The translations under genes were made by a program, and so were the position numbers. 64,000 nt of DNA from Candidatus Woesearchaeota archaeon (GTDB taxonomy: Archaea; Nanobdellota; Nanobdellia; Woesearchaeales; GW2011-AR4), in contig JACOZN010000015.1 in NCBI GenBank assembly GCA_016181305.1, positions 2,205 to 66,204 of the forward strand, written 5' to 3'. The notes under the pieces are model-generated. The model was not told the DNA's origin and searched no databases. It worked only from the letters and a program-made list of their open reading frames with translations. Of the stretch, positions 21,095 through 31,836 are shown piece by piece (position 1 is the stretch's first letter; the number at the start of each line of letters is the position of its first letter).

Positions 21095-21423
21095 GAAAAG
21101 TTCACATAACGTACAATATTTCACGAGGTTTTTTCCCCACAAAATTTTCCCTCGTGAGCAAATTTCGGCAACCCATGAAATTTGCGATAGAGCTGGAAAA
21201 TTTTGAGAGATGGAAAAAACTTAGTAAAAATCGGGAAAATGCTTGGCATTTTAGCGTTAGCGACCGATTTTTCCGTGAAATATGTGTTATATTCGTTTTC
21301 CATACAAAGTGTGGGAAACCTGCGTCCGCAGACTTTTTTAGACACCGTAAATCTGAGAGGCACTGTAGTTTTTACAATAGATTTCTGCGAAGCAGAGTAG
21401 ATGTCCGTAGGACTGAGGGGGGC
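21095..21423. repeat. Left boundary element: seven conserved blocks plus hairpin inserts (inverted homolog of 29111-29296)
   Basis: Blocks at 21095-110, 21283-294, 21332-346, 21345-354, 21354-364, 21367-381 and 21415-423 match the right end in reverse complement and in the same order. Confidence 0.85.
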
Positions 21424-21455
21424 TGTTTTTGGTTCTTTTTCTGAAAAAGATGGAA

Positions 21456-22952
21456 TTACTTAAATTTAGATAAGAATTTCACAAAATAATATTTATCCCT
21501 TAAAAGCTTTTTTAATTCATTACGGTCAAAAATAATCATATCCTTTGGAGCATGAACCAATCTCTTATCTTTATTTGTTATTAGAATTTGACTTTTAACA
21601 TCAACATCAGGGAGGAATCTAATTTTTTCTTTAAGAGTCTCCTCAATCAGTTTTGTTTGATAAATGTCTTCTGATAACTTATCTTTATCTTTTTTGTATA
21701 TTAACTGGGTTTTCTTCCTAAAAAGTTTTAATTCGAGATGATATATTATTCCTTCATAATTTATCGTATAATCTGCAATACGATCTCGTATTTTCTTTTC
21801 TTTCTGAAACTCAATGTTATTTTCCTTAAATATGAACTGAAGATAATTTGAAAACACTATTTCATTCATATTATCTATGTCAGTCAGCCATGTTGACTCC
21901 TGATAGTTTTTTATTTCATCTTGTCTGATTTCCGGAAATAAAACTCTCAAGGCCCTTAAATCAGCTTCAATAAAACAAACCCCATCTTTAGATATAAATG
22001 TAGTAATGTTGTCGTTCTGATTTACATAAACTTTCTCATAATCTTTAAACAATTCAAAAGTATCTACATTAAGTAGTTTCTCATCAAATCCGATAAAAAT
22101 AATCCTATTGTTTTCAATAAGTTCTACTTTTCCGATAAATTCTTTACCATTAATTTTTTGCCTTTGGCTTTCATACTTCAATTTAAACCATAAACCTTGT
22201 TTTTCTGAGAATTCTGGGAAATCTGTCATGTTCTTATTTTGAAATCTTTTTTTCATTAGTTTGAAATACCTTGTCAGTTCTTGTTGTCCTGCTAATTTGA
22301 ATATTTGAATGTAGTGATTTGTTTTAATAATAAGTTTTGAGAATCTATCAAAATTTCTATTATCTGATGATGATGGATCAATTAACCTGCTCAATACCCC
22401 AATCTCGTTTATGGCTGCAATTCTTATATCAGCATTTCTGGAGTTTTTTTGGGTTCTGGCCCTATTAACCTCAGATTGTGGAATATTGTCAAAGCTCCCC
22501 TTAGATTCACAAACAATTGATTCTTCATTACTTGTCATTGCTTCAAAATCTGCACGTTTCCAAGGTCCTTTAAGTTTATTCATTGAATTTTCTTGCACAT
22601 TAAATAAACTACTTACAAGGCATCGGCTCAATCCTTCTCCAATTATTTCTGCCGCTTGACCTTTTTGTTCGCTATCCATATCAGATATTTCAAAACTTAA
22701 ATAAATTCCATTTGTAATTCGTTTGATATATGGTAAATAATCGTTGAACTTTGTTCTTCGAGAACTACTGATTTTACTCATTGGTTTTGATAGGTGCATT
22801 TGATATGCTAATTCAAATAGGTTTATCTGAACATCAAAAGGAATATTTTGTTGTTTATCTGAAAACAATCTAGTAAATATAATTGATGGAAATTGTTCTA
22901 GTCGTGCGCTCACTTGTTTATTTCTCCATCTTGTAAAAATATAATCAAGCAT
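21456..22952 (-). CDS. Putative nuclease with two PD-(D/E)xK domains
   Basis: RADF...IVCESKGS (N-terminal half) and IADY...YHLELK (C-terminal half). Confidence 0.6.
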   Translation of the reverse strand: MLDYIFTRWRNKQVSARLEQFPSIIFTRLFSDKQQNIPFDVQINLFELAYQMHLSKPMSKISSSRRTKFNDYLPYIKRITNGIYLSFEISDMDSEQKGQAAEIIGEGLSRCLVSSLFNVQENSMNKLKGPWKRADFEAMTSNEESIVCESKGSFDNIPQSEVNRARTQKNSRNADIRIAAINEIGVLSRLIDPSSSDNRNFDRFSKLIIKTNHYIQIFKLAGQQELTRYFKLMKKRFQNKNMTDFPEFSEKQGLWFKLKYESQRQKINGKEFIGKVELIENNRIIFIGFDEKLLNVDTFELFKDYEKVYVNQNDNITTFISKDGVCFIEADLRALRVLFPEIRQDEIKNYQESTWLTDIDNMNEIVFSNYLQFIFKENNIEFQKEKKIRDRIADYTINYEGIIYHLELKLFRKKTQLIYKKDKDKLSEDIYQTKLIEETLKEKIRFLPDVDVKSQILITNKDKRLVHAPKDMIIFDRNELKKLLRDKYYFVKFLSKFK

Positions 22953-23072
22953 TTATACACCCATTTAATCTGATTTTCTTTGCTATCTTTAATAACTTTA
23001 CTTAGTAAAAGTATCGTTAAATTTAAATAGAAGCACATTTAAGGTTATATATACATAAATGGGTTGGTGGTT

Positions 23073-23219
23073 ATGGCAAAACGAACAATATCGTTAAGTG
23101 TAGAAGAAGAAATCTATGATGAATATAGGAAATTCTGCGAGAAAAAAGGTATTATCTTATCAAAGCAATTTGAGAACTTTATGGCTGAGGAATTAGAGAA
23201 GAATAAATCAAGGTCTTAA
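23073..23219 (+). CDS. Small ribbon-helix-helix regulator (48 aa; not in the ORF track)
   Basis: Manual translation MAKRTISLSVEEEIYDEYRKFCEKKGIILSKQFENFMAEELEKNKSRS; stop lies 2 nt before the mod start. Confidence 0.75.
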   Translation: MAKRTISLSVEEEIYDEYRKFCEKKGIILSKQFENFMAEELEKNKSRS

Positions 23220-23221
23220 TA

Positions 23222-24934
23222 ATGGCAAAGAAAGATTATTCCAATTGGTCAAAAGAAGAACTGGTTAGGGAGTTAAAGAAAGTTGAAAAGAGAAAAAAAT
23301 ATGGAATGGTTTGGGAAGACAAGCCCGAAAAAGTAGCTGAATTATGCAAAGAAAAACTGCCTGTCTTGGAAGAGGACACAAAGAAAGAAATTAAAACAGA
23401 CGATAAAAAGCCAGTCAATATTCTGATAGAAGGCGACAATTATCATGCTCTTTCTGTTTTGAACTACACCAATAAAGGATTAATTGATGTTATCTATATT
23501 GATCCTCCATACAATACAGGAAAAAAGAAAGAATGGAAATATAACGACCATTATGTTGACAAAGAAGACTCATACAGACACAGTAAATGGTTAGATTTTA
23601 TGAGTAAAAGACTAAAATTGGCTAAGCCTTTACTTCGTAATAATGGCTTGATATTTATCTCCATCGATGATAACGAGATAGCACAATTAAAATTATTGTG
23701 CGATTGGATATTTGGAGAAAAAAACTTAGTTGCAAATTTTGTTTGGAGGACTGCTGGTAATTTTGATAATCAAGCAAAAGTGAAGATTTGTCATGAATAT
23801 ATTTTGTGTTATGCGAAGAATATAAAAAACATTAAAGCTCCAAAGATAATTGACCCAAATATTGATGTTCAAAGTAAATTATTCAAAGACGAAATAAGAA
23901 ATACTATAGTAAAAAACGGGCCAAAAAACCCTATAAGCGAGATTAGGTTACCACCAGGGATGCCTGCTTCTTTTAAGGAAGGTGTTATAAAGAAGAGAGA
24001 CACTGCGTGGCCCCATTATGATAAGGATGCTATCGTGAAAGATTACCAATTACAAAATGAAATTCTAATTAAGAGTGGGTGGAGTTCAAAAAATTTGTTC
24101 GAGACTTTCTTGAATACCAGTTTTTCTCCAGTAGTTGATATTAAAGGACAAGAATCGTTGTTTGAAATTAGCACAACTGGAGCAATAGAAGTTGTGAAAA
24201 AAAGAAGTGAGGATCAGAGTCATGTTTTATCTGTCCTAACTAACCTTGGAAACACCCAGTCAACTAGCCAATTTTTGAAGAAAATTGGTGTGAGCTTTAC
24301 ATATCCAAAGCCAGTAGAGTTGATAAAATATCTTATCAATATGAATACTTCTAAAAACCCAGTAGTATTAGATTTCTTTGCTGGCTCTGGGACAACAGGA
24401 CAATCTCTTCTTGAGATTAATAAAGAATTTAAAAAAAATGGGAGGTTCATTCTTTGTACCAACAATGAAGATAGTAATGGAGATGGAAACAAGATACTTA
24501 GTGATATTTGCTATCCTAGACTAAAAAAAGTAATACGAGGTGATAGCTTCATAGCAAAGTTAGGGGGAAACCTCAAATATTTTAAAACTGATTTCGTCGA
24601 TGCTGGGCCAACAGACGAGAATAAACGTAAGATGGTTGATAAATCTACGGAAATGCTCTGCCTAAAAGAAGATTGCTTTGAAGAAGTCATGCAGAGTAAA
24701 AAATTCGGAATTTTCAAAAATGTCCAAGAAAAATATTTAGGAATAATCTATGATGATGACGGCATTGAGCCATTCAAGAAAGAAGCTAAAAAGTTAAAAA
24801 AGCAGTTTGTTGTGTATGTGTTCTCTCTTGATGAAAGCGCAAGAGAAGACGAGTTCGAAGATGTCTATGATTTGGTTGAGTTAAGGCCAATTCCGGCAGT
24901 CATACTAAACGTTTACAAGAGGATATTCAAATGA
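23222..24934 (+). CDS. mod: Type III-like RM DNA methyltransferase (Mod)
   Basis: LIEGDN, IYIDPPYNTG (motif IV), YPKPVEL, VLDFFAGSGTT (motif I). Confidence 0.92.
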   Translation: MAKKDYSNWSKEELVRELKKVEKRKKYGMVWEDKPEKVAELCKEKLPVLEEDTKKEIKTDDKKPVNILIEGDNYHALSVLNYTNKGLIDVIYIDPPYNTGKKKEWKYNDHYVDKEDSYRHSKWLDFMSKRLKLAKPLLRNNGLIFISIDDNEIAQLKLLCDWIFGEKNLVANFVWRTAGNFDNQAKVKICHEYILCYAKNIKNIKAPKIIDPNIDVQSKLFKDEIRNTIVKNGPKNPISEIRLPPGMPASFKEGVIKKRDTAWPHYDKDAIVKDYQLQNEILIKSGWSSKNLFETFLNTSFSPVVDIKGQESLFEISTTGAIEVVKKRSEDQSHVLSVLTNLGNTQSTSQFLKKIGVSFTYPKPVELIKYLINMNTSKNPVVLDFFAGSGTTGQSLLEINKEFKKNGRFILCTNNEDSNGDGNKILSDICYPRLKKVIRGDSFIAKLGGNLKYFKTDFVDAGPTDENKRKMVDKSTEMLCLKEDCFEEVMQSKKFGIFKNVQEKYLGIIYDDDGIEPFKKEAKKLKKQFVVYVFSLDESAREDEFEDVYDLVELRPIPAVILNVYKRIFK

Positions 24935-27114
24935 TAGAGTTAAGAGACTATCAGAAAAAGGCAGTTGAAAGTCTTAAATCCAAAGTCCAGAATGTTCTGA
25001 ATACTCCGGACAATGAAGTCGTTATTTTCCAAGCACCGACAGGAAGTGGCAAGACGGTTATGGTTTCTGAAATGCTTAAACAATTAGTTAAGGAGAACCA
25101 TAAAAGATACTCTTTTGTCTGGGTTTCTGTCAGAATGTTGCACGAGCAAAGCAAGGAGAAATTAGAGAAATATTACGAAGATGACAGGTTAATCCAATGC
25201 TCCTATTTTGAAGATTTGGATGACAGACAGATTGGGGAAAATGAGATTTTATTTATAAATTGGCACAGCATTAACAAGAAAGACATTAATATTTATGTCA
25301 GGGAAAACGAGCAGGACAATAACTTAAACGCAATTATCCAAAATACAAAAGAAGAAGGCAGAGAAATAATCTTAATCATAGATGAAAGCCATCATACTGC
25401 GAGTTCTGAAAAGTCAAAAGAATTAATTGAGACAATCGGGCCAAAAGTGACTATTGAAGTTTCAGCTACTCCACACTTAAAAGAAAATGTTTCTGAGATT
25501 GAAAGAGTACACATCTCACAAGTCAAAGCTGAAGAAATGATAAAATCAGAAATAGCAGTAAATCCCGAATTTATGGATATAAAAATTGGCTCAAAAAGTT
25601 CAGACGAGTTAATCATAGAACAAACATTAAAGAAAAGAGTGGAATTAGCAAAGTTTTATGAAAAAGAAGGCTCAAACATAAATCCACTTGTTCTTGTTCA
25701 GCTTCCAGACCAAAAAGGCAATTTAATCAACAAAAAAGACGATGTTGTAAAAATACTCAAAGACAAGTTCAAGATAACAGAAGAAAACGGAAAACTGGCA
25801 GTATGGCTTTCAGAAGAAAAAACCGATAATCTGGCCAATATTGACAAAAACGACAATGAAGTGGAAGTTTTAGTTTTCAAACAGGCCATAGCTCTAGGCT
25901 GGGATTGTCCGAGAGCACAAATTCTTGTCATTTTCAGAGAATCAAAAAGTTTCACATTTACCATTCAAACAATAGGCAGAATAATGAGAATGCCAGAATT
26001 GAAATACTACAATGAAGAGGATTTGAATAAAGGTTATGTCTTTACAAACCTGCCGAATATTGAGATTACAGAAGATTACGCAAAAGACTATGTTACAATT
26101 TATGAAGCAAAAAGAGACAGCAAACTCTACAAAGAAATTTCTCTGCCGTCCATTTTCCTGAAAAGGCAAAGGGAAAGAACAAGATTATCCGGGAAATTCG
26201 GAGATATTTTTATGAAAGTGGCAGAAGAAATAAATCTCCAGAAGAAGATTACTACCAAGCCATCAAGAACAGTAAGCCCGATTATTGCTGATGGCAGAAT
26301 TGTAAACATTGACCAATTGGGAGAAATTGAAAGGAAAGGACAGATTGAAGTCCAACTCAATTTAACAGAATTGCAGCAGTTATTTGACAAGTTTATCGCC
26401 GACAACTGCACGCCATACGCACCAGCAGATTCAAGCGATAGAATGAAAACAGCAATTTACAACTTCTTCACACAAAAATACAAACTCAGAAAGTTTGATC
26501 CGCAAGCCCAAAGAATAGTCTTAGGAAAGGAAAACGTGCAGGCATTCGTAGATATCATTAACATAGCAAAAGAACGCTACAAAAAAGAAGTTGTAGAGAA
26601 AATAAATGAAAAGCGAGAGAAAAAAGAAATACCCAAATGGGAGGTTCCTGTTATCATCAGTTATAACAGCAGATATTCCAAAGAAGAGCATCCGACTTCG
26701 ATAATGAAGCCATTTTACACCAAGAAGCCAAGTGAGCCGGAAAGAAAGTTTATAGAATTGCTCAATAAATCAAAAAAGGTGAAATGGTGGTTCAAGAATG
26801 GTGAAACCGAGATAAAGTATTTCGCTGTTCCATATATTGACGAAAACGGCTTTGAGAGAGCGTTCTATGTTGATTTTATCGTGCAGTTTACAGATGGCTC
26901 TATCGGCCTGTTTGACACAAAAGGCGGAATGACTGCAAAAGATGCAGGGTCAAGAGCCGAAGGATTGCAGAAATATCTCAAGAAAAATAAAGATAAGAAA
27001 GTTTGGGGCGGAATTGCTATTTTTGTAAATGGAACATGGCGTTACAATGACAAAGAAACATATGAGTATAATCTTAATGACTTGTCGAGTTGGAAGATAT
27101 TAGATATTATATAG
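24931..27114 (+). CDS. res: Type III-like restriction subunit (SF2 helicase + C-terminal nuclease)
   Basis: QAPTGSGKT, IIDESHH, GWDCPRA, QTIGRIMR, FYVDFIV...FDTKG; ATGA overlap with mod. Confidence 0.88.
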   Translation: MIELRDYQKKAVESLKSKVQNVLNTPDNEVVIFQAPTGSGKTVMVSEMLKQLVKENHKRYSFVWVSVRMLHEQSKEKLEKYYEDDRLIQCSYFEDLDDRQIGENEILFINWHSINKKDINIYVRENEQDNNLNAIIQNTKEEGREIILIIDESHHTASSEKSKELIETIGPKVTIEVSATPHLKENVSEIERVHISQVKAEEMIKSEIAVNPEFMDIKIGSKSSDELIIEQTLKKRVELAKFYEKEGSNINPLVLVQLPDQKGNLINKKDDVVKILKDKFKITEENGKLAVWLSEEKTDNLANIDKNDNEVEVLVFKQAIALGWDCPRAQILVIFRESKSFTFTIQTIGRIMRMPELKYYNEEDLNKGYVFTNLPNIEITEDYAKDYVTIYEAKRDSKLYKEISLPSIFLKRQRERTRLSGKFGDIFMKVAEEINLQKKITTKPSRTVSPIIADGRIVNIDQLGEIERKGQIEVQLNLTELQQLFDKFIADNCTPYAPADSSDRMKTAIYNFFTQKYKLRKFDPQAQRIVLGKENVQAFVDIINIAKERYKKEVVEKINEKREKKEIPKWEVPVIISYNSRYSKEEHPTSIMKPFYTKKPSEPERKFIELLNKSKKVKWWFKNGETEIKYFAVPYIDENGFERAFYVDFIVQFTDGSIGLFDTKGGMTAKDAGSRAEGLQKYLKKNKDKKVWGGIAIFVNGTWRYNDKETYEYNLNDLSSWKILDII

Positions 27115-27132
27115 CTAAGTAATTCGTATGGG

Positions 27133-28158
27133 GTGGTTCAGATGTCATCAAAAGAAATAATGAAAAAAATCACTGATTTTATGCCAGAGTTTAAGAACAG
27201 AATAGATGAAATCTCGATAGAAGATATAGAACCTAACCCTTTTAACCCCAGAAAGAAGTTTAGTCAAGAAAAAGAGGATGAACTTATAGAATCTATTGCC
27301 CAGATGAAAATTGTACTTCAGCCAATTATAGTTTATGAAAAAATCCGTAAACAAGAGAAGAAATACATAATTCTTGACGGACAAAGAAGGTATCAAGCGT
27401 GTAAGAAACTCGGAATTGATAAAATTCCTGCCCATATTCTGGTAAAGGAACCAACTTATGTTGAAAATTTATCAATTATGTTCCACATCCATAATGTTCA
27501 TGAAGATTGGACCGATTTAGCTATTTCTACCACAATACCAGAGTTATGTCGAGAATTGGAAATTGATCCTCAACATCCAACTAAAGAAGGTATGCAGAAT
27601 ATTAAAAAATTAACCTCGCTATCAATGTATAAGCTTAAGAAATACTTTGATGTCTTAACTTATTCTGATGAAATTATTAAAGAATTCAGAGAAGCAGAGT
27701 TAAAAGAAAAACCAGATTTAGATGTGGATATTTTATCTGAATTAAAAAGCCCCTTGAAAAAAATTAGGGCACTTATGTCATCTTCTATGAAAATAGAGTA
27801 TTCAAAAGAGAAAATTGTTAAGATTATTGTTGAAAAAAAGAAAAACAAAGTAATTACAACAAACAAACAAATAAGAAAATTATCAAAAATTGCTATGAAT
27901 GTAAACAGGGGGAAAGTCAATAAACAAGTTGCAATTGAGAGAATTAAAGATTTTCTCGACAACAAAGAAGTTACAATTGATGATATCTATTCAGACACAT
28001 CTGAGGCAATTGAACAAGCAAAAGGTATAATCAAGAATTCTGAAAAATTACGGAAGGAAATAGATAACATTGATTTAAGGAAATTGCCCAATGAAGATAA
28101 GAAGAGTCTAAGTACCGAACTAAAAAATCTTAATGAGTCTATTAAAAGAAAGTTTTAG
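27133..28158 (+). CDS. ParB/Srx N-terminal domain protein
   Basis: IEPNPFNPRKKF, LQPIIV, ILDGQRRYQAC. Confidence 0.8.
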   Translation: MVQMSSKEIMKKITDFMPEFKNRIDEISIEDIEPNPFNPRKKFSQEKEDELIESIAQMKIVLQPIIVYEKIRKQEKKYIILDGQRRYQACKKLGIDKIPAHILVKEPTYVENLSIMFHIHNVHEDWTDLAISTTIPELCRELEIDPQHPTKEGMQNIKKLTSLSMYKLKKYFDVLTYSDEIIKEFREAELKEKPDLDVDILSELKSPLKKIRALMSSSMKIEYSKEKIVKIIVEKKKNKVITTNKQIRKLSKIAMNVNRGKVNKQVAIERIKDFLDNKEVTIDDIYSDTSEAIEQAKGIIKNSEKLRKEIDNIDLRKLPNEDKKSLSTELKNLNESIKRKF

Positions 28159-29106
28159 GTGTGGAAAATGGATGAGAAAGAGATTCTTAAAAAATTGTCT
28201 CATCATTTAACAAGAGAAGGTTATCCTCATATATCAATTAATCCGTTTTTGAAAACTCTTGGCTGGTCTTTTGATCTCTATGCCGAAAGTAAGAATAATG
28301 CAGTTGCTATTGAATACAGAAAAAATGATAACGTTCCAAAAATATTTTTTGATAGAGTAGCTAGCATCAAAGGGCAAAAGAGGATTCTAAAAATATATCT
28401 GCTATTTGAGAAAACTCCAAAAGCATCAGCATTTAAGTCTCTGAAAGAGGCTGGAATTGGAATTATTATATTTCAAAAACAGAGGTTTTATATCTTTTTA
28501 GAATCAAAAGACTTTTCCAAGAGACCAATTTCTAAATCAAAAGCAAAGAAAAGCATCAAGAAGATTAAGTCAATGCCTCAAATATGGGTCTACCCATGCT
28601 CGAAACAGTATGAATCTGACGAAAAAACATTATGTAAGGAGAGAGACAAAATCTGTAAAATTGTACGGAGATATCAAAGAAAGCAAATACCAATCGGCTA
28701 TAAGTTAGTGGAAAATGACAAGAAAGATGATAAATATTTTAAAAAGCAAATTATTCGTAATTTGAGAGAAAGTCATATCTTCATTGCTGCAATTAATGAA
28801 AGATATAGTGAATATATTGATTTTGAAATAAGCAACGTGTTTGATATTATTAAGGATAAGATGCTGATTCTTATAATGAAAAAAGATATGTCAGAAAATG
28901 ATATAGAAGAAAAAGAACTGGATACAGAACAAAGAAATATTAAGAGAGCCAAACAAATAAAATTGATAAAATTTGCACAGGATAAAACAAAAACTATCTC
29001 TTATTCAGGATTAAGAGAATTTGAAGAGAAAGTAGATACGTTTTTGGTAAAAATGATTGTTCGATTACATGAAAAAAATAAAGTTAAATCCCCTTTCTCA
29101 TACTAG
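28159..29106 (+). CDS. Restriction-endonuclease-like domain fused to a TIR-like domain
   Basis: SFDLYA...AVAIEYRK; C-terminal half IIRNLRESHIFIAAINERYSEYIDFEI resembles the TIR core with a Glu at the catalytic position. Confidence 0.5.
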   Translation: MWKMDEKEILKKLSHHLTREGYPHISINPFLKTLGWSFDLYAESKNNAVAIEYRKNDNVPKIFFDRVASIKGQKRILKIYLLFEKTPKASAFKSLKEAGIGIIIFQKQRFYIFLESKDFSKRPISKSKAKKSIKKIKSMPQIWVYPCSKQYESDEKTLCKERDKICKIVRRYQRKQIPIGYKLVENDKKDDKYFKKQIIRNLRESHIFIAAINERYSEYIDFEISNVFDIIKDKMLILIMKKDMSENDIEEKELDTEQRNIKRAKQIKLIKFAQDKTKTISYSGLREFEEKVDTFLVKMIVRLHEKNKVKSPFSY

Positions 29107-29110
29107 TTAT

Positions 29111-29296
29111 GCCCCCCTCTATCTAATGTAAAAACTTAGGAGAACGTAGTGAACTGTATAATCTCTCGTTATGCGAATCTCTTTGAGTTTGCATTTTTAA
29201 GATTATACGAAAGTGCCTCTCAATAAAGATTTACGGCGTAAGCCTCTCTATAGGTGTCTAAAAAAGTGAATATAACACAGTTATGGCGAACTTTTC
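29111..29296. repeat. Right boundary element (inverted homolog of 21095-21423)
   Basis: GCCCCCCTC 29111-119, TCTAATGTAAAAACT 29122-136, AGTGCCTCTCA 29212-222, AGATTTACGG 29227-236, GGTGTCTAAAAAAGT 29253-267, GAATATAACACA 29268-279, GTTATGGCGAACTTTTC 29280-296. Confidence 0.85.
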
Positions 29297-29330: not shown

Positions 29331-29338
29331 TTTTTAAA
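29331..29338 (+). promoter_or_regulatory. TATA box of the 5S rRNA gene
   Basis: TTTTTAAA located 23 nt before the 5S 5' end. Confidence 0.55.
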
Positions 29339-29361
29339 GCGCCTTTTCTTCCTCTTTGCCT

Positions 29362-29501
29362 TGGACGGCCATAGGGGCTTGGTTCACCCGATCCCATCCC
29401 GAACTCGGATTAGGTTAAGGAGTTGGCCTACGAGAGAGTTAAGCAAGCCTCCGTTTCCAGTCGTACTGTACTTACGTACGGGAGCCTGGAAAAGCTGTCC
29501 A
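29362..29501 (+). rRNA. rrf: 5S rRNA gene containing a 27-nt insert (29410-29436)
   Basis: Helix I TGGACGGC/GCTGTCCA, GGCCATAG, ACCCGATCCCATCCCGAACTCGGA, AGTTAAG, helix II GGGGCTTG/CAAGCCTC, helix V TTTCCAG/CTGGAAA. Confidence 0.95.
29410..29436 (+). other. Putative bulge-helix-bulge mini-intron in 5S rRNA
   Basis: Inner 8-bp hairpin TAGGTTAA/TTGGCCTA, bulge GA^T, 4-bp central helix CTCG/CGAG, bulge AG^A; joining the exons gives CTCGGA-AGTTAAG. Confidence 0.75.
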
Positions 29502-29507
29502 CCTTTA

Positions 29508-30185
29508 TTATTCGAATGGGATCATCAACTCCATCTTTATTTTTTTAAATTCTTCAACATTTCTAGAATTAGCCCCATACGATTTAACCATCAAATCCAG
29601 TTTTCTTGCTTTTTTTGGATGTTTAAAATATATTTCCTCTTTAAATTTTATTATATTCTCTTTTCCTGTAATACTCAACACATAAGAATTATCTTTTATG
29701 CTATTTGGCTTAGTCCTAATTATCTTGTTAGAGTTTATGTCAAAGTCAAGAAGCATTAGTTTAACTTCTTCCAATAACTTTAGTGAATTTGAGGTTAATG
29801 TTATGTTCCTTTTCCACTCATTGCCCTTAAAAAATAATCTCAAGGCCGCGCAACCTTCATCATCATACAAAGCTCTCAAATATTCTTTTTGAACCTGTTT
29901 ATCAGCACTTTTTATGGAATTTGGTATATACAATACATCACTTCTGAAATCAGGAAGATGCTCCAAGAATTTATGTATTATCCTATTTCCATGTATTTGT
30001 AAAAATTTAACCCCAGAATTATTTTTTCCATGACTAAACTTTATATCACCAAATTCCGTAATAATATCATTTTTAAATTCTTCAAGCAAAACTTCACAGG
30101 TATTGCTGTAACGTATATATCTATAATATAAATTACCATCACCACTTATTTTAGCCAAGCATCTTGCGAAATTCTTTGAAATCAT
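29508..30185 (-). CDS. Two-motif LAGLIDADG homing endonuclease
   Basis: [11 protein letters not shown] and [10 protein letters not shown] helices; AT-rich; the stop abuts the 5S 3' end. Confidence 0.85.
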
Positions 30186-30376
30186 TTAAATCACTGATTC
30201 CTTGATGTTGAAACTGCGTAAATGATTTTGGTTTAAATATTATATGTGAGAATGTCCAGTGCTTATTTTCTATATAGAAAACAAAAATCATAATTTGGTA
30301 ATTGAGACTTACCTTAAGTGATTTAAATGTAGAATGAAGCAAGATGTAATGGCTTTAAGTGATTGTTTTATTATTA

Positions 30377-30446
30377 AGTTAAGCAAGCCTCCGTTTCCAG
30401 TCGTACTGTGCTCAGCACGGGAGCCTGGAAAAGCTGTCCACCTTTA
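30377..30446 (+). pseudogene. Orphan duplicate 3' half of 5S rRNA
   Basis: Direct repeat of 29437-29507: 33 and 30 identical nt flank a helix IV tip that differs (ACTTACGT vs GCTCAGC). Confidence 0.92.
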
Positions 30447-31244
30447 CTTTAATTTCTCCAAATCCTTATTGGAATGAATATGGATCTCCTTCTCGGAGCT
30501 TAAATGCCCGTTCAACAGCCCTTTCTCCGCAAGCTGCGGAAAAACGCTGAATTCAAGGCTTGCGCCCGAGTACTCAAAAATCTGGGGCTCGGCGACGAAT
30601 ATCGGGGAAAACACAAGGTATATGTCGGATTTTTTCGGCTTCTGCGTGAAAGTCAGAACCCTGTTGCCCTCGACCCTCACAGTGCCTTTCTCGCTCGGCT
30701 TTGGTGATGTTGTAAGCATTATGGTTGCAATGGCGTTCTGCTTTATGTGGTCGCTCCAAAGCTCGTCTATGTTTATCTTGCTGAATACAATGTCCCCATA
30801 GACAACAAGAAAGTTCGCGCCTATCTTTCCTTTCAGGAGCCTCAGGGAGTCTGCTGTGCCGCCTGAAGCGCGCTCCTCAATGTAGCTGATCTTTACCCCG
30901 TATTCCGCTCCGTCCTTCAGCAGTTCAAACAGCCTGGTGAGCAGCCTGTGCCTTGCCACGATGCAGATTGTCTTGAAGTTGTTTTCCCTCAGCTTTTTTA
31001 TCGCCAGCTCAATGACAGCAGCATTCCTTATTCTTGCAGTCGGCCTGTACTCTCCCTTTGAGACTGCGAGATGCTCCTCGCTGCCTCCAAGAAGAATGAC
31101 TGCTGTCTTGTTTTTCCCCAGGGAATTCTTTACAAGATGCTCTATTGCCTGGCTCCGGTTCCTTACATAAATATTGTCTATGATGGAGTCTATGTCCTGC
31201 AGCGTCTTTTTGCTTATGGTTATTGAGATCTTCGCTTTGGGCAT
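30444..31244 (-). CDS. CopG/RHH DNA-binding domain fused to a degenerate NTP-transferase domain
   Basis: KISITISKKTLQDID...NRSQAIE; VILLGG, GGTADSL, LVVYGDIVF. Confidence 0.75.
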   Translation of the reverse strand: MPKAKISITISKKTLQDIDSIIDNIYVRNRSQAIEHLVKNSLGKNKTAVILLGGSEEHLAVSKGEYRPTARIRNAAVIELAIKKLRENNFKTICIVARHRLLTRLFELLKDGAEYGVKISYIEERASGGTADSLRLLKGKIGANFLVVYGDIVFSKINIDELWSDHIKQNAIATIMLTTSPKPSEKGTVRVEGNRVLTFTQKPKKSDIYLVFSPIFVAEPQIFEYSGASLEFSVFPQLAEKGLLNGHLSSEKEIHIHSNKDLEKLK

Positions 31245-31245
31245 T

Positions 31246-31836
31246 TTAAGGCCTTAGCCACCTGCATTCATAGTAAGTAACGTCCATCTCAGAATCAACA
31301 ATTCCCAGCAATAATCTTTTCTTTGTGGAATGCGCAACACGATTTTTTGCGGCAAACTCGTACCATGTCAGCGTAGAGCCTTCATGGACAGGGAAAACAA
31401 CCCATCTTGCATGGTCTTCTCCCGGCTTCACGCCCCTGTCATAAATCCTGAAATCTGCGCCGAACTTCAGGGCTGTCTTTATTATGTAGCCCCTGTTCCT
31501 TATGTCCCTGTAGACGCAATACCTGACCCAGAAGTTCGGCTCTATCTTTTGCGCCTTTTTCAGGAATGTTTCAAAATCAATCGGCTTGTTCCTTGAGTCA
31601 TGAATAATTGCCCTTTTCTTTTCAAGCAAATAAAGCGATTCAATCAGGGAAAGCTGCACCCTGCCGTCATCCAAAAGCTCCCCGTACCTGCTTTGGTTAT
31701 AGAGCTCCCTAGCATTGTCCGAGCTTTCTGTAAGCACTCGTTCCTTTGAAAGATATGCTTTGACAGGCTCCTTGTGCTCCTTAAGTTCTTTGTCTTCCTT
31801 CTTCGGAAGAATTTCTTCCTTTTTCTTGGCTGTCAT
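31246..31836 (-). CDS. endA: tRNA splicing endonuclease (catalytic unit)
   Basis: VYRDIRNRGY, KFGADFRIY (Tyr), EDHA (His), AHSTKK (Lys). Confidence 0.93.
   Translation of the reverse strand: MTAKKKEEILPKKEDKELKEHKEPVKAYLSKERVLTESSDNARELYNQSRYGELLDDGRVQLSLIESLYLLEKKRAIIHDSRNKPIDFETFLKKAQKIEPNFWVRYCVYRDIRNRGYIIKTALKFGADFRIYDRGVKPGEDHARWVVFPVHEGSTLTWYEFAAKNRVAHSTKKRLLLGIVDSEMDVTYYECRWLRP

Follow-up and report, generated by a model that had tools for sequence, protein, structure and literature searches.

Results

Organization of the 5S rRNA locus

In a 64,000-nucleotide stretch (hereafter designated the window) of contig JACOZN010000015.1, which belongs to a woesearchaeal (DPANN) metagenome-assembled draft genome (G000; 1.07 Mb, 22 contigs, 78% complete), we found that the sole 5S rRNA gene of the assembly is interrupted by a 27-nt mini-intron and is followed first by a free-standing gene for a LAGLIDADG nuclease, in antisense orientation, and then by a duplicate 5S 3′ half. 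The sequence comparisons described below make it probable that a selfish homing-endonuclease cassette has inserted into this single 5S gene, exactly between CGGA and AGTT. An Rfam search (RF00001) in the E-value mode gave one full-length 5S match in the window (29361–29503, + strand; 35.4 bits), and no match was obtained anywhere in the window at the gathering threshold (38 bits); the score falls just below this cut-off because an insertion of ~25–27 nt interrupts the gene. No tRNA genes were found by ARAGORN over the window, and a sigma-70 promoter and terminator scan of the window was uninformative for an archaeon. The features of the locus are as follows.

29331–29338, + strand: TATA-like box TTTTTAAA, ~26 nt upstream of the 5S 5′ end (read from the sequence)
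29361–29409, + strand: 5S exon 1, 49 nt, ending ...GAACTCGGA (Rfam RF00001 alignment)
29410–29436, + strand: candidate bulge-helix-bulge (BHB) mini-intron, 27 nt, at "site A", between ...CTCGGA and AGTTAAGC...
29437–29503 (repeat unit to 29507), + strand: 5S exon 2, copy 1, ending CCACC (Rfam match and direct repeat)
29508–30185, − strand: free-standing LAGLIDADG nuclease gene, 225 aa, tail-to-tail with the 5S gene (PF14528, LAGLIDADG_3, E = 3e-15)
30186–30376, − strand: nuclease leader or upstream region, 191 nt, conserved in an alignment of six cassettes; its right end is the cassette boundary
30377–30442 (repeat unit to 30446), + strand: displaced 5S 3′ half, copy 2, starting at AGTT, exactly the splice junction, after ...TTATTA
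30444–31244, − strand: nucleotidyl-transferase gene of the host flank (Pfam PF00483)
31246–31836, − strand: EndA tRNA-splicing endonuclease gene, 196 aa, outside the cassette (PF01974, E = 1e-27; PF02778, E = 2e-15)

A preliminary description of this DNA had proposed the order exon 1, mini-intron, copy 1, antisense LAGLIDADG gene, leader and copy 2, and every element was found at the place assigned to it; copy 2 indeed begins at the splice junction (30377), and removal of 29410–30376 (967 bp) yields an intact 5S gene. The two 3′ halves form a direct repeat (29437–29507 versus 30377–30446) and differ solely at the tip of helix IV, which reads CTGTAC-TTAC-GTACGG (GUACUUACGUAC) in copy 1 and CTGTGC-TCA-GCACGG (GUGCUCAGCAC) in copy 2, that is, a compensatory A–T to G–C change plus a loop change. 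Since both tips are sound hairpins, both copies derive from working 5S genes. Copy 2 is presumably non-functional because it has neither exon 1 nor a BHB partner. The TATA-like box at 29331–29338 is the presumed 5S promoter, and the block that contains it is also kept in the empty-site allele described next. Downstream, the nucleotidyl-transferase gene keeps its place beside the 5S 3′ end throughout the genus, as tblastn showed for genomes with the cassette, with an empty site and with the intron only.

Empty-site alleles and boundaries of the insertion

A scan of metagenome contigs for exon 1 in direct continuation with a copy 2-type 3′ half brought up two (L127 and L128) that carry such empty-site alleles. 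After deletion of 29410–30376, the window and the empty allele were identical at 670 of 706 aligned positions (94.9%), and the whole 5S gene together with ~30 nt downstream was the same in both. Exon 1 agreed with the empty allele of L127/L128 at 49/49 positions, and the intronless allele scored 74.4 bits in Rfam, whereas the gene with the insertion scored 35.4 bits. The 3′ half of the empty allele is identical to copy 2 (70/70), with the same downstream flank, and differs from copy 1 at the helix IV tip; thus, the resident half is represented by copy 2, and copy 1 arrived with the cassette. Copy 1 shows 93–100% identity to the cassette of another species of the genus (G014) and is the predicted incoming replacement 3′ half and the functional one of the two. 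The left recombination boundary lies within exon 1, because the upstream flank is of the empty-allele type and not of the G014 type. The comparison of filled and empty alleles indicates that the intron, the 3′ half and the nuclease gene entered as one block at site A, and no target-site duplication was found in this comparison. For assigning copies 1 and 2 to donor and host lineages by way of the 5S 3′ halves of sister species, 70 nt are too few outside the G000/L127 pair.

The similarity to L127 starts at position 29112 of the window, and the 4 kb lying further upstream in L127 match nothing in the window. The corresponding upstream block of the window (21095–29111) encodes a DNA methylase (23222–24934), a ResIII helicase (24931–27114) and a ParB-like protein (27133–28158); this restriction-modification and ParB-like block is therefore variable between close relatives.

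Recurrence of the arrangement among relatives

The same order of 5S gene and antisense nuclease gene recurs in over 20 contigs, among them contigs of 33–124 kb, that were assembled independently in different studies from different samples, many of them with decaying remnants of copy 2; six species of the genus and some 15 additional assemblies show the arrangement. The same cassette is present in five further species (G014, G022, G004, G017 and G016), with nucleases 68–76% identical to that of the window and a conserved leader. From the junction onwards, G000 and G014 retain all of copy 2. Its first bases are missing in G022 and G017, G004 has lost an internal part of it, and next to nothing of it is left in G016; copy 2 thus apparently behaves as a dead fragment. 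A full cassette, with copy 2 from the junction on, was also found at L129. Both features that the preliminary description had proposed looking for in relatives are present: intronless empty alleles exist (L127 and L128, with ~95% flank identity), and arrangements of 5S gene, LAGLIDADG gene and half 5S gene are recurrent and not unique to the window.

Beyond the genus, close homologues (48–59% identical) lie tail-to-tail with 5S genes containing the site-A intron in three other families of the order. Of 401 genomes sampled across the order, only 4, one of them the source of the window, have a close homologue, and these belong to four different families. A scan of GTDB genomes yielded 21 nuclease loci, 19 of which have an abutting 5S gene, with the site-A intron in 14 of those 19; copy 2 remnants of 17–55 nt were recognized at four loci (L107, L110, L112 and L119), and at L118 the nuclease gene is situated 5′ of the 5S gene. 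In the sample of relatives, 5S genes with the site-A intron were accompanied by the nuclease in 6/10 cases, versus 0/32 for those without that intron. One locus, L114 (MHMT01000023.1), is labelled Candidatus Portnoybacteria, a bacterium of the candidate phyla radiation (CPR), and has the same archaeal 5S and nuclease locus as L113 (Nanoarchaeia); this contig is therefore probably mis-binned.

Among 36 other species representatives of the genus, the 5S genes are either intronless or contain mini-introns at three sites, namely site A (CGGA|AGTT), site B (CCCGAA|CACGG) and site C (CCCAT|CCCGAA). Mini-introns at site B (L026, L027, L025, L028, L030, L031 and L032) and at site C (L029, L023, L039, L040, L042 and L105) are ~28–45 nt long and fit the BHB motif by eye (e.g. 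CCCG/CGGG with bulges AA|A and UU|C), and two introns occur in one gene in G001, G016 and G038. Downstream of the two-intron 5S gene of G038, on the same strand, there is a distant LAGLIDADG-like frame (L039, 2519–2941; 30% identical to L117), which may represent a different nuclease lineage at the same locus. Intron-containing 5S genes score 28–37 bits, below the 38-bit cut-off of Rfam, and an Rfam 5S match is absent in 19/61 relatives; the number of 5S genes in DPANN genomes is probably underestimated.

Predicted splicing signals of the mini-intron

The BHB of the window intron was read by hand from the sequence. Its central helix of 4 bp is formed between CUCG in the exon (29404–07) and CGAG in the intron (29431–34) and is bordered by the bulges GA|U and AG|A, and the inner hairpin pairs UAGG... 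with ...CCUA. Cuts at 2|1 in both bulges would leave precisely CGGA|AGUU, the sequence found in intronless 5S genes of relatives. The pairing was examined by a covariation test on 16 homologous site-A introns from several families of the order, with slid partners as the control: 95.5% of the cells were paired, compared with ≤48% in the slid controls, and changes on both sides were seen in 7 of the 11 BHB pairs (2/4 in the central and 5/5 in the inner helix). Moreover, the central helix varies in step with the exon, from CUCG/CGAG to CACG/CGUG and CACA/UGUG.

EndA is encoded 800 bp from the locus (31246–31836), and the ligase RtcB elsewhere in the genome (G000:C1:23304-24485; 487 bits). From the motif and these genes, we infer that the mini-intron is spliced by the host EndA (with RtcB) at the RNA level, and EndA from the neighbouring gene would be the expected trans-acting enzyme for its excision.

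The nuclease and its leader

The 225-aa protein contains two LAGLIDADG motifs with catalytic acids (...ISGDGN, D16; ...YDDEGC, E110), and the residues G15-D16-G17 and D108-D109-E110-G111 are invariant in 24 homologues. The AlphaFold2 model is of high quality (predicted local distance difference test, 94; predicted template modelling score, 0.91). A Foldseek search with this model returned I-Tsp061I, I-DmoI, PI-PfuI and the TliVMA intein nuclease on top (E = 5e-11 to 1e-8; probability 1.0), with template modelling scores of 0.60–0.75 for I-DmoI and I-Tsp061I; the fold is pseudo-dimeric, alpha-beta-beta-alpha-beta-beta-alpha, as in the monomeric two-motif LAGLIDADG type. A sequence search of the Protein Data Bank with the nuclease gave no match, and identity to the solved structures is just 17–20%. 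Among the genus copies, the ratio of nonsynonymous to synonymous substitution rates (dN/dS) is 0.06–0.17. Judged from the model and the conserved residues, the protein looks like an active nuclease. The protein family comprises at least 97 sequence clusters.

The leader, which appears to be regulatory, has a TATA-like box (TTTAAATA, 30233–40, − strand) and, just upstream of it, the motif (T)GTCCAGTG (30257–64). This motif is kept family-wide, including in homologues of 45–60% identity (L105, L108, L112, L113, L115, L117, G074, G222 and G109), and may be a site for a regulator or autorepressor. In addition, an imperfect inverted repeat pairs 30160–30195, which contains the Shine-Dalgarno sequence, AUG and first codons of the nuclease gene, with 30317–30346 in the leader. 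It consists of a perfect 13-nt core (GTGATTTAAATG), kept in all six genus cassettes and L108, plus CATCTTGC/GCAAGATG; the region folds in the mRNA sense with −35.5 kcal/mol (z = −4.46), and the first ~17 codons of the nuclease gene are 93–98% conserved at the DNA level. By analogy with nuclease genes of phage T4, the inverted repeat could prevent transcripts that read through from the upstream transferase gene from being translated.

Transfer, mosaicism and decay

The nuclease body and leader of G000 (about 29650–30376) are 94–98% identical to those of L129, from another species (leader, 93–95%), versus 74% for the adjacent host gene. This block of high identity stops at the junction of the leader and copy 2, and the intron, copy 1 and the nuclease 3′ end are 73–85% identical between the two. 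The relation to G014 is a mosaic: identity is 93–100% over the 5S gene, the intron, copy 1, the first ~100 nt of the nuclease 3′ end and the leader, versus ~70% in the nuclease body, where G014 resembles G022 (85–92%). In the nuclease tree, G014 is paired with G016 and has a 4-aa insertion in common with it, whereas the host tree (Hef) pairs G000 with G014 and groups genomes that have the cassette as sisters with ones that are intronless or have a site-B intron, with values of 97–99 in the Shimodaira–Hasegawa-like approximate likelihood ratio test. The cassette is thus polymorphic in its presence at a fixed site and its spread does not follow the host phylogeny, and we regard it on these grounds as very probably mobile.

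Several relatives contain what looks like a decay series: an intron with a 37-nt nuclease remnant in the nuclease-less G036, an intronless 5S gene followed by 49 nt of the nuclease 3′ end in G031, a remnant similar to the latter in G021, and 156 nt of the leader in G020; at L107, a second, older remnant of the nuclease 3′ end lies beyond the copy 2 remnant. According to the model of Goddard and Burt, homing endonuclease genes are said to cycle through invasion, degeneration, loss and re-invasion, and the pattern of remnants fits such a cycle. Collectively, the empty allele, the recurrence, the 94–98% versus 74% identities, the mosaics and the remnants lend support to the central claim of the preliminary description, namely that a mobile cassette, inserted at the 5S splice junction, supplies a 3′ exon of its own together with a free-standing LAGLIDADG nuclease, and that the resident half is displaced by it.

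Proposed mechanism

The putative cleavage site is suggested by a single coincidence: the right boundary of the cassette and the point of intron insertion fall together in G000, G014 and L129, and almost do so in the distant L112. That the enzyme cuts precisely at CGGA^AGTT, and that the intron confers immunity, are plausible and perhaps slightly favoured. In the proposed cycle, the nuclease would cut intronless 5S genes at or beside CGGA^AGTT, and the break would be repaired from a cassette-bearing copy by a route that we infer: exon 1 and the displaced 3′ half, which are conserved in every species, would serve as short homology arms, so that the whole block is copied in. The host EndA and RtcB would then join exon 1 to the incoming 3′ half, by which the 5S gene would still work, and the intron, splitting the target sequence, would let the invaded gene escape further cutting. 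Later, the nuclease gene, leader and displaced half would decay or be deleted, leaving 5S genes with only the intron or with remnants that are presumably open to re-invasion.

Opposing observations and alternative explanations

Several observations weigh against a homing cassette protected by a spliced intron. Four intact nucleases (L106, L111, L115 and L116) adjoin 5S genes without the site-A intron, and a fifth (L105) adjoins a 5S gene with only a 1-nt insertion at site A; the nucleases next to intronless 5S genes are interleaved with the intron-linked ones in the nuclease tree. The intron is thus not strictly needed for coexistence. No nuclease gene was found within 1.5 kb of the site B and C introns, so that 5S mini-introns can persist alone. 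As for splicing, the minimum-energy fold given by RNAfold for the junction is not a BHB (z = −0.51), and the outer BHB helix is weak, with only 2 bp; the assignment of the motif therefore rests on covariation and geometry. The host tree is built from a single marker (Hef), and synonymous divergence is saturated in most nuclease pairs of the genus and equals that of the host genes. Long vertical phases between transfers are therefore likely, and ancient inheritance followed by loss could account for much of the distribution of the cassette.

The site-A sequences of L106, L111, L115 and L116 differ from the genus consensus and may be resistant to the nuclease. In the nuclease-linked 5S genes of L105 (CGGA-T-AGTTAAGC) and L118 (CAGA-T-AGTTAAGC), which lack the site-A intron, a single T is inserted exactly at site A, which hints at pressure on this position; the T could be a minimal resistance change or the scar of an imprecise intron loss. 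The nuclease open reading frames (ORFs) of L106, L111, L115, L116 and L105 have lost the usual stop codon and continue antisense through the 5S 3′ half; in L105, L115 and L116 they end at a TAA in the reverse complement of AGTTAAGC, with tails of the type ...QYN.ER..., and those of L106 and L111 stop earlier. These C-terminal tails were considered as a separate feature and rejected, since they look like read-through after stop-codon loss.

Some of these points could also be read in terms of an ancient, immobile arrangement, in which one old duplication or rearrangement was inherited vertically and lost repeatedly, and the protein is a relic or was recruited by the host (e.g. for binding 5S DNA or RNA). 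Saturated synonymous divergence like that of host genes, intact copies beside intronless 5S genes without apparent harm, and remnants in many members of the genus, which fit ancestral presence, would all be accommodated, and the strong purifying selection on the nuclease is explicable by a host function as well. Such an origin is nevertheless unlikely in view of the clean empty site with its ~95% flank identity and a 3′ half equal to copy 2, and of the near-identity of nuclease and leader between species whose neighbouring gene has diverged to 74%; moreover, the cassettes are mosaics, the common indel contradicts the host tree, the catalytic residues are invariant across the 24 homologues, and the homologue is confined to 4/401 genomes of the order from four families. 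The nuclease might instead be mobile with another target, such as the 5S 3′ end or flank, and the site-A intron an unrelated passenger. Nuclease genes next to intronless 5S genes, site B and C mini-introns without a nuclease, and the 5′ position of the nuclease at L118 agree with this possibility, which we consider quite unlikely all the same: copy 2 starts at the intron insertion point to the base in G000, G014 and L129 (nearly in L112), the intron, 3′ half and nuclease gene entered as one block, the nuclease is associated with the intron in 6/10 versus 0/32 genes, and the 1-nt T of the nuclease-linked L105 and L118 falls exactly at site A.

The perfect 5S gene restored by deleting 29410–30376 would also be expected if the entire 967 bp were one large intron with an antisense ORF, exon 1 being joined to copy 2 and copy 1 being junk. 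This is very improbable and was rejected: the sequence immediately preceding copy 2 (...GTTTTATTATTA) offers exon 1 neither a CGAG strand nor a BHB bulge, and in G022, G017, G004, G016, G074 and G109 copy 2 is missing or has an eroded 5′ end, whereas copy 1 and the BHB are intact and covary. A draft assembled from a metagenome in 22 contigs and 78% complete might contain a chimeric contig in which two strain variants of the 5S locus were collapsed, yet the probability of such an artefact is practically negligible, and misassembly was rejected because the same order of parts recurs in the independently assembled contigs. A simple tandem duplication was likewise rejected: the boundary of the duplicate is the intron site, the empty allele matches copy 2, and copy 1 is of a foreign type.

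Discussion

To our knowledge, 5S rRNA has been treated as too short for introns or homing elements. It does not seem to be exempt, as a DPANN genus and its order carry 5S mini-introns at three sites, one of them tied to a probably mobile nuclease. If the homing cassette proposed here is real, these would be the first introns reported in 5S rRNA genes, and the mini-introns of archaeal structural RNA genes, including those at 5S sites B and C, would be footprints of nuclease cycles; the origin of ORF-less BHB introns would become directly testable. Presumably, a tiny essential RNA gene can be invaded because the ORF is kept outside it, a spare exon is supplied, and the tRNA-splicing enzymes of the host mend the transcript. 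In practical terms, interrupted 5S genes (35 versus the 38-bit cut-off for the window gene) would be missed in DPANN annotation and completeness estimates, and the nuclease family, with its 97 or more clusters, would represent uncharacterized LAGLIDADG enzymes with a predictable target.

No description of a 5S rRNA intron was found in the literature, as far as the incomplete searchable library extends. Among 645 5S genes surveyed in CPR bacteria, none had an insertion of ≥100 bp (PMC11270868), and a survey of archaeal group I introns lists sites in the small and large subunit rRNA genes only. The preliminary description had called the system previously undescribed, which holds in part: an architecture with a replacement 3′ end (PMC3630166) and the pairing of a free-standing nuclease with an ORF-less intron (PMC2790892, PMC6083498) are known, whereas we found no earlier account of this architecture for archaea, for 5S rRNA or for BHB introns so used.

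As in archaeal tRNA and 16S/23S rRNA genes with BHB introns, a 3-4-3 bulge-helix-bulge spans the exon–intron junctions and EndA and RtcB are encoded, but the intron described here is located in a 5S rRNA gene. The nuclease resembles I-DmoI and I-Tsp061I in its monomeric two-domain LAGLIDADG fold and in the context of archaeal rRNA genes with BHB introns; it differs from them in that the ORF is antisense and lies outside the intron, downstream of exon 2, and in that the host gene is 5S and not 16S or 23S.

In the collaborative or trans homing of phages, represented by F-CphI with the psbA intron of cyanophage S-PM2 and by mobE of T4 with the I-TevIII intron (PMC6083498, PMC2790892, PMC2988022), a free-standing nuclease gene likewise adjoins a gene with an ORF-less intron at the presumed cleavage site, and both move together. 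The archaeal element differs in having a 27-nt BHB intron that would be spliced by proteins instead of a self-splicing group I intron, in the duplicate exon within the cassette, and in its cellular host.

By analogy, the closest architecture is that of the fungal mitochondrial "gene hybrids" formed by mobile ORFs, such as Allomyces macrogynus atp6 and Glomus atp6, atp9, cox2 and nad3 (Paquin et al. 1994, as summarized in PMC3630166). In both, a foreign 3′ portion of the gene has been inserted together with the ORF of a free-standing endonuclease; the native 3′ portion, pushed further downstream, degenerates, and its sequence matches that of a close relative without the element (here 70/70). 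Unlike those gene hybrids, the present cassette resides in an archaeal chromosome and not in a mitochondrion, its host gene is a 119-nt structural RNA and not protein-coding, its LAGLIDADG ORF lies on the opposite strand and is not fused in frame, and the target appears to be split by a BHB mini-intron, whereas it is masked there by synonymous divergence. We lean, if only slightly, towards regarding the element as the representative of an unrecognized archaeal class, for which the term exon-replacement homing cassette may be suitable, using both halves of the universally conserved 5S gene as portable arms across species and families and a host-spliced 27-nt BHB intron as an immunity device. 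Such a cassette would link the collaborative homing of phages with the exon replacement of fungal mitochondria, in the third domain of life.

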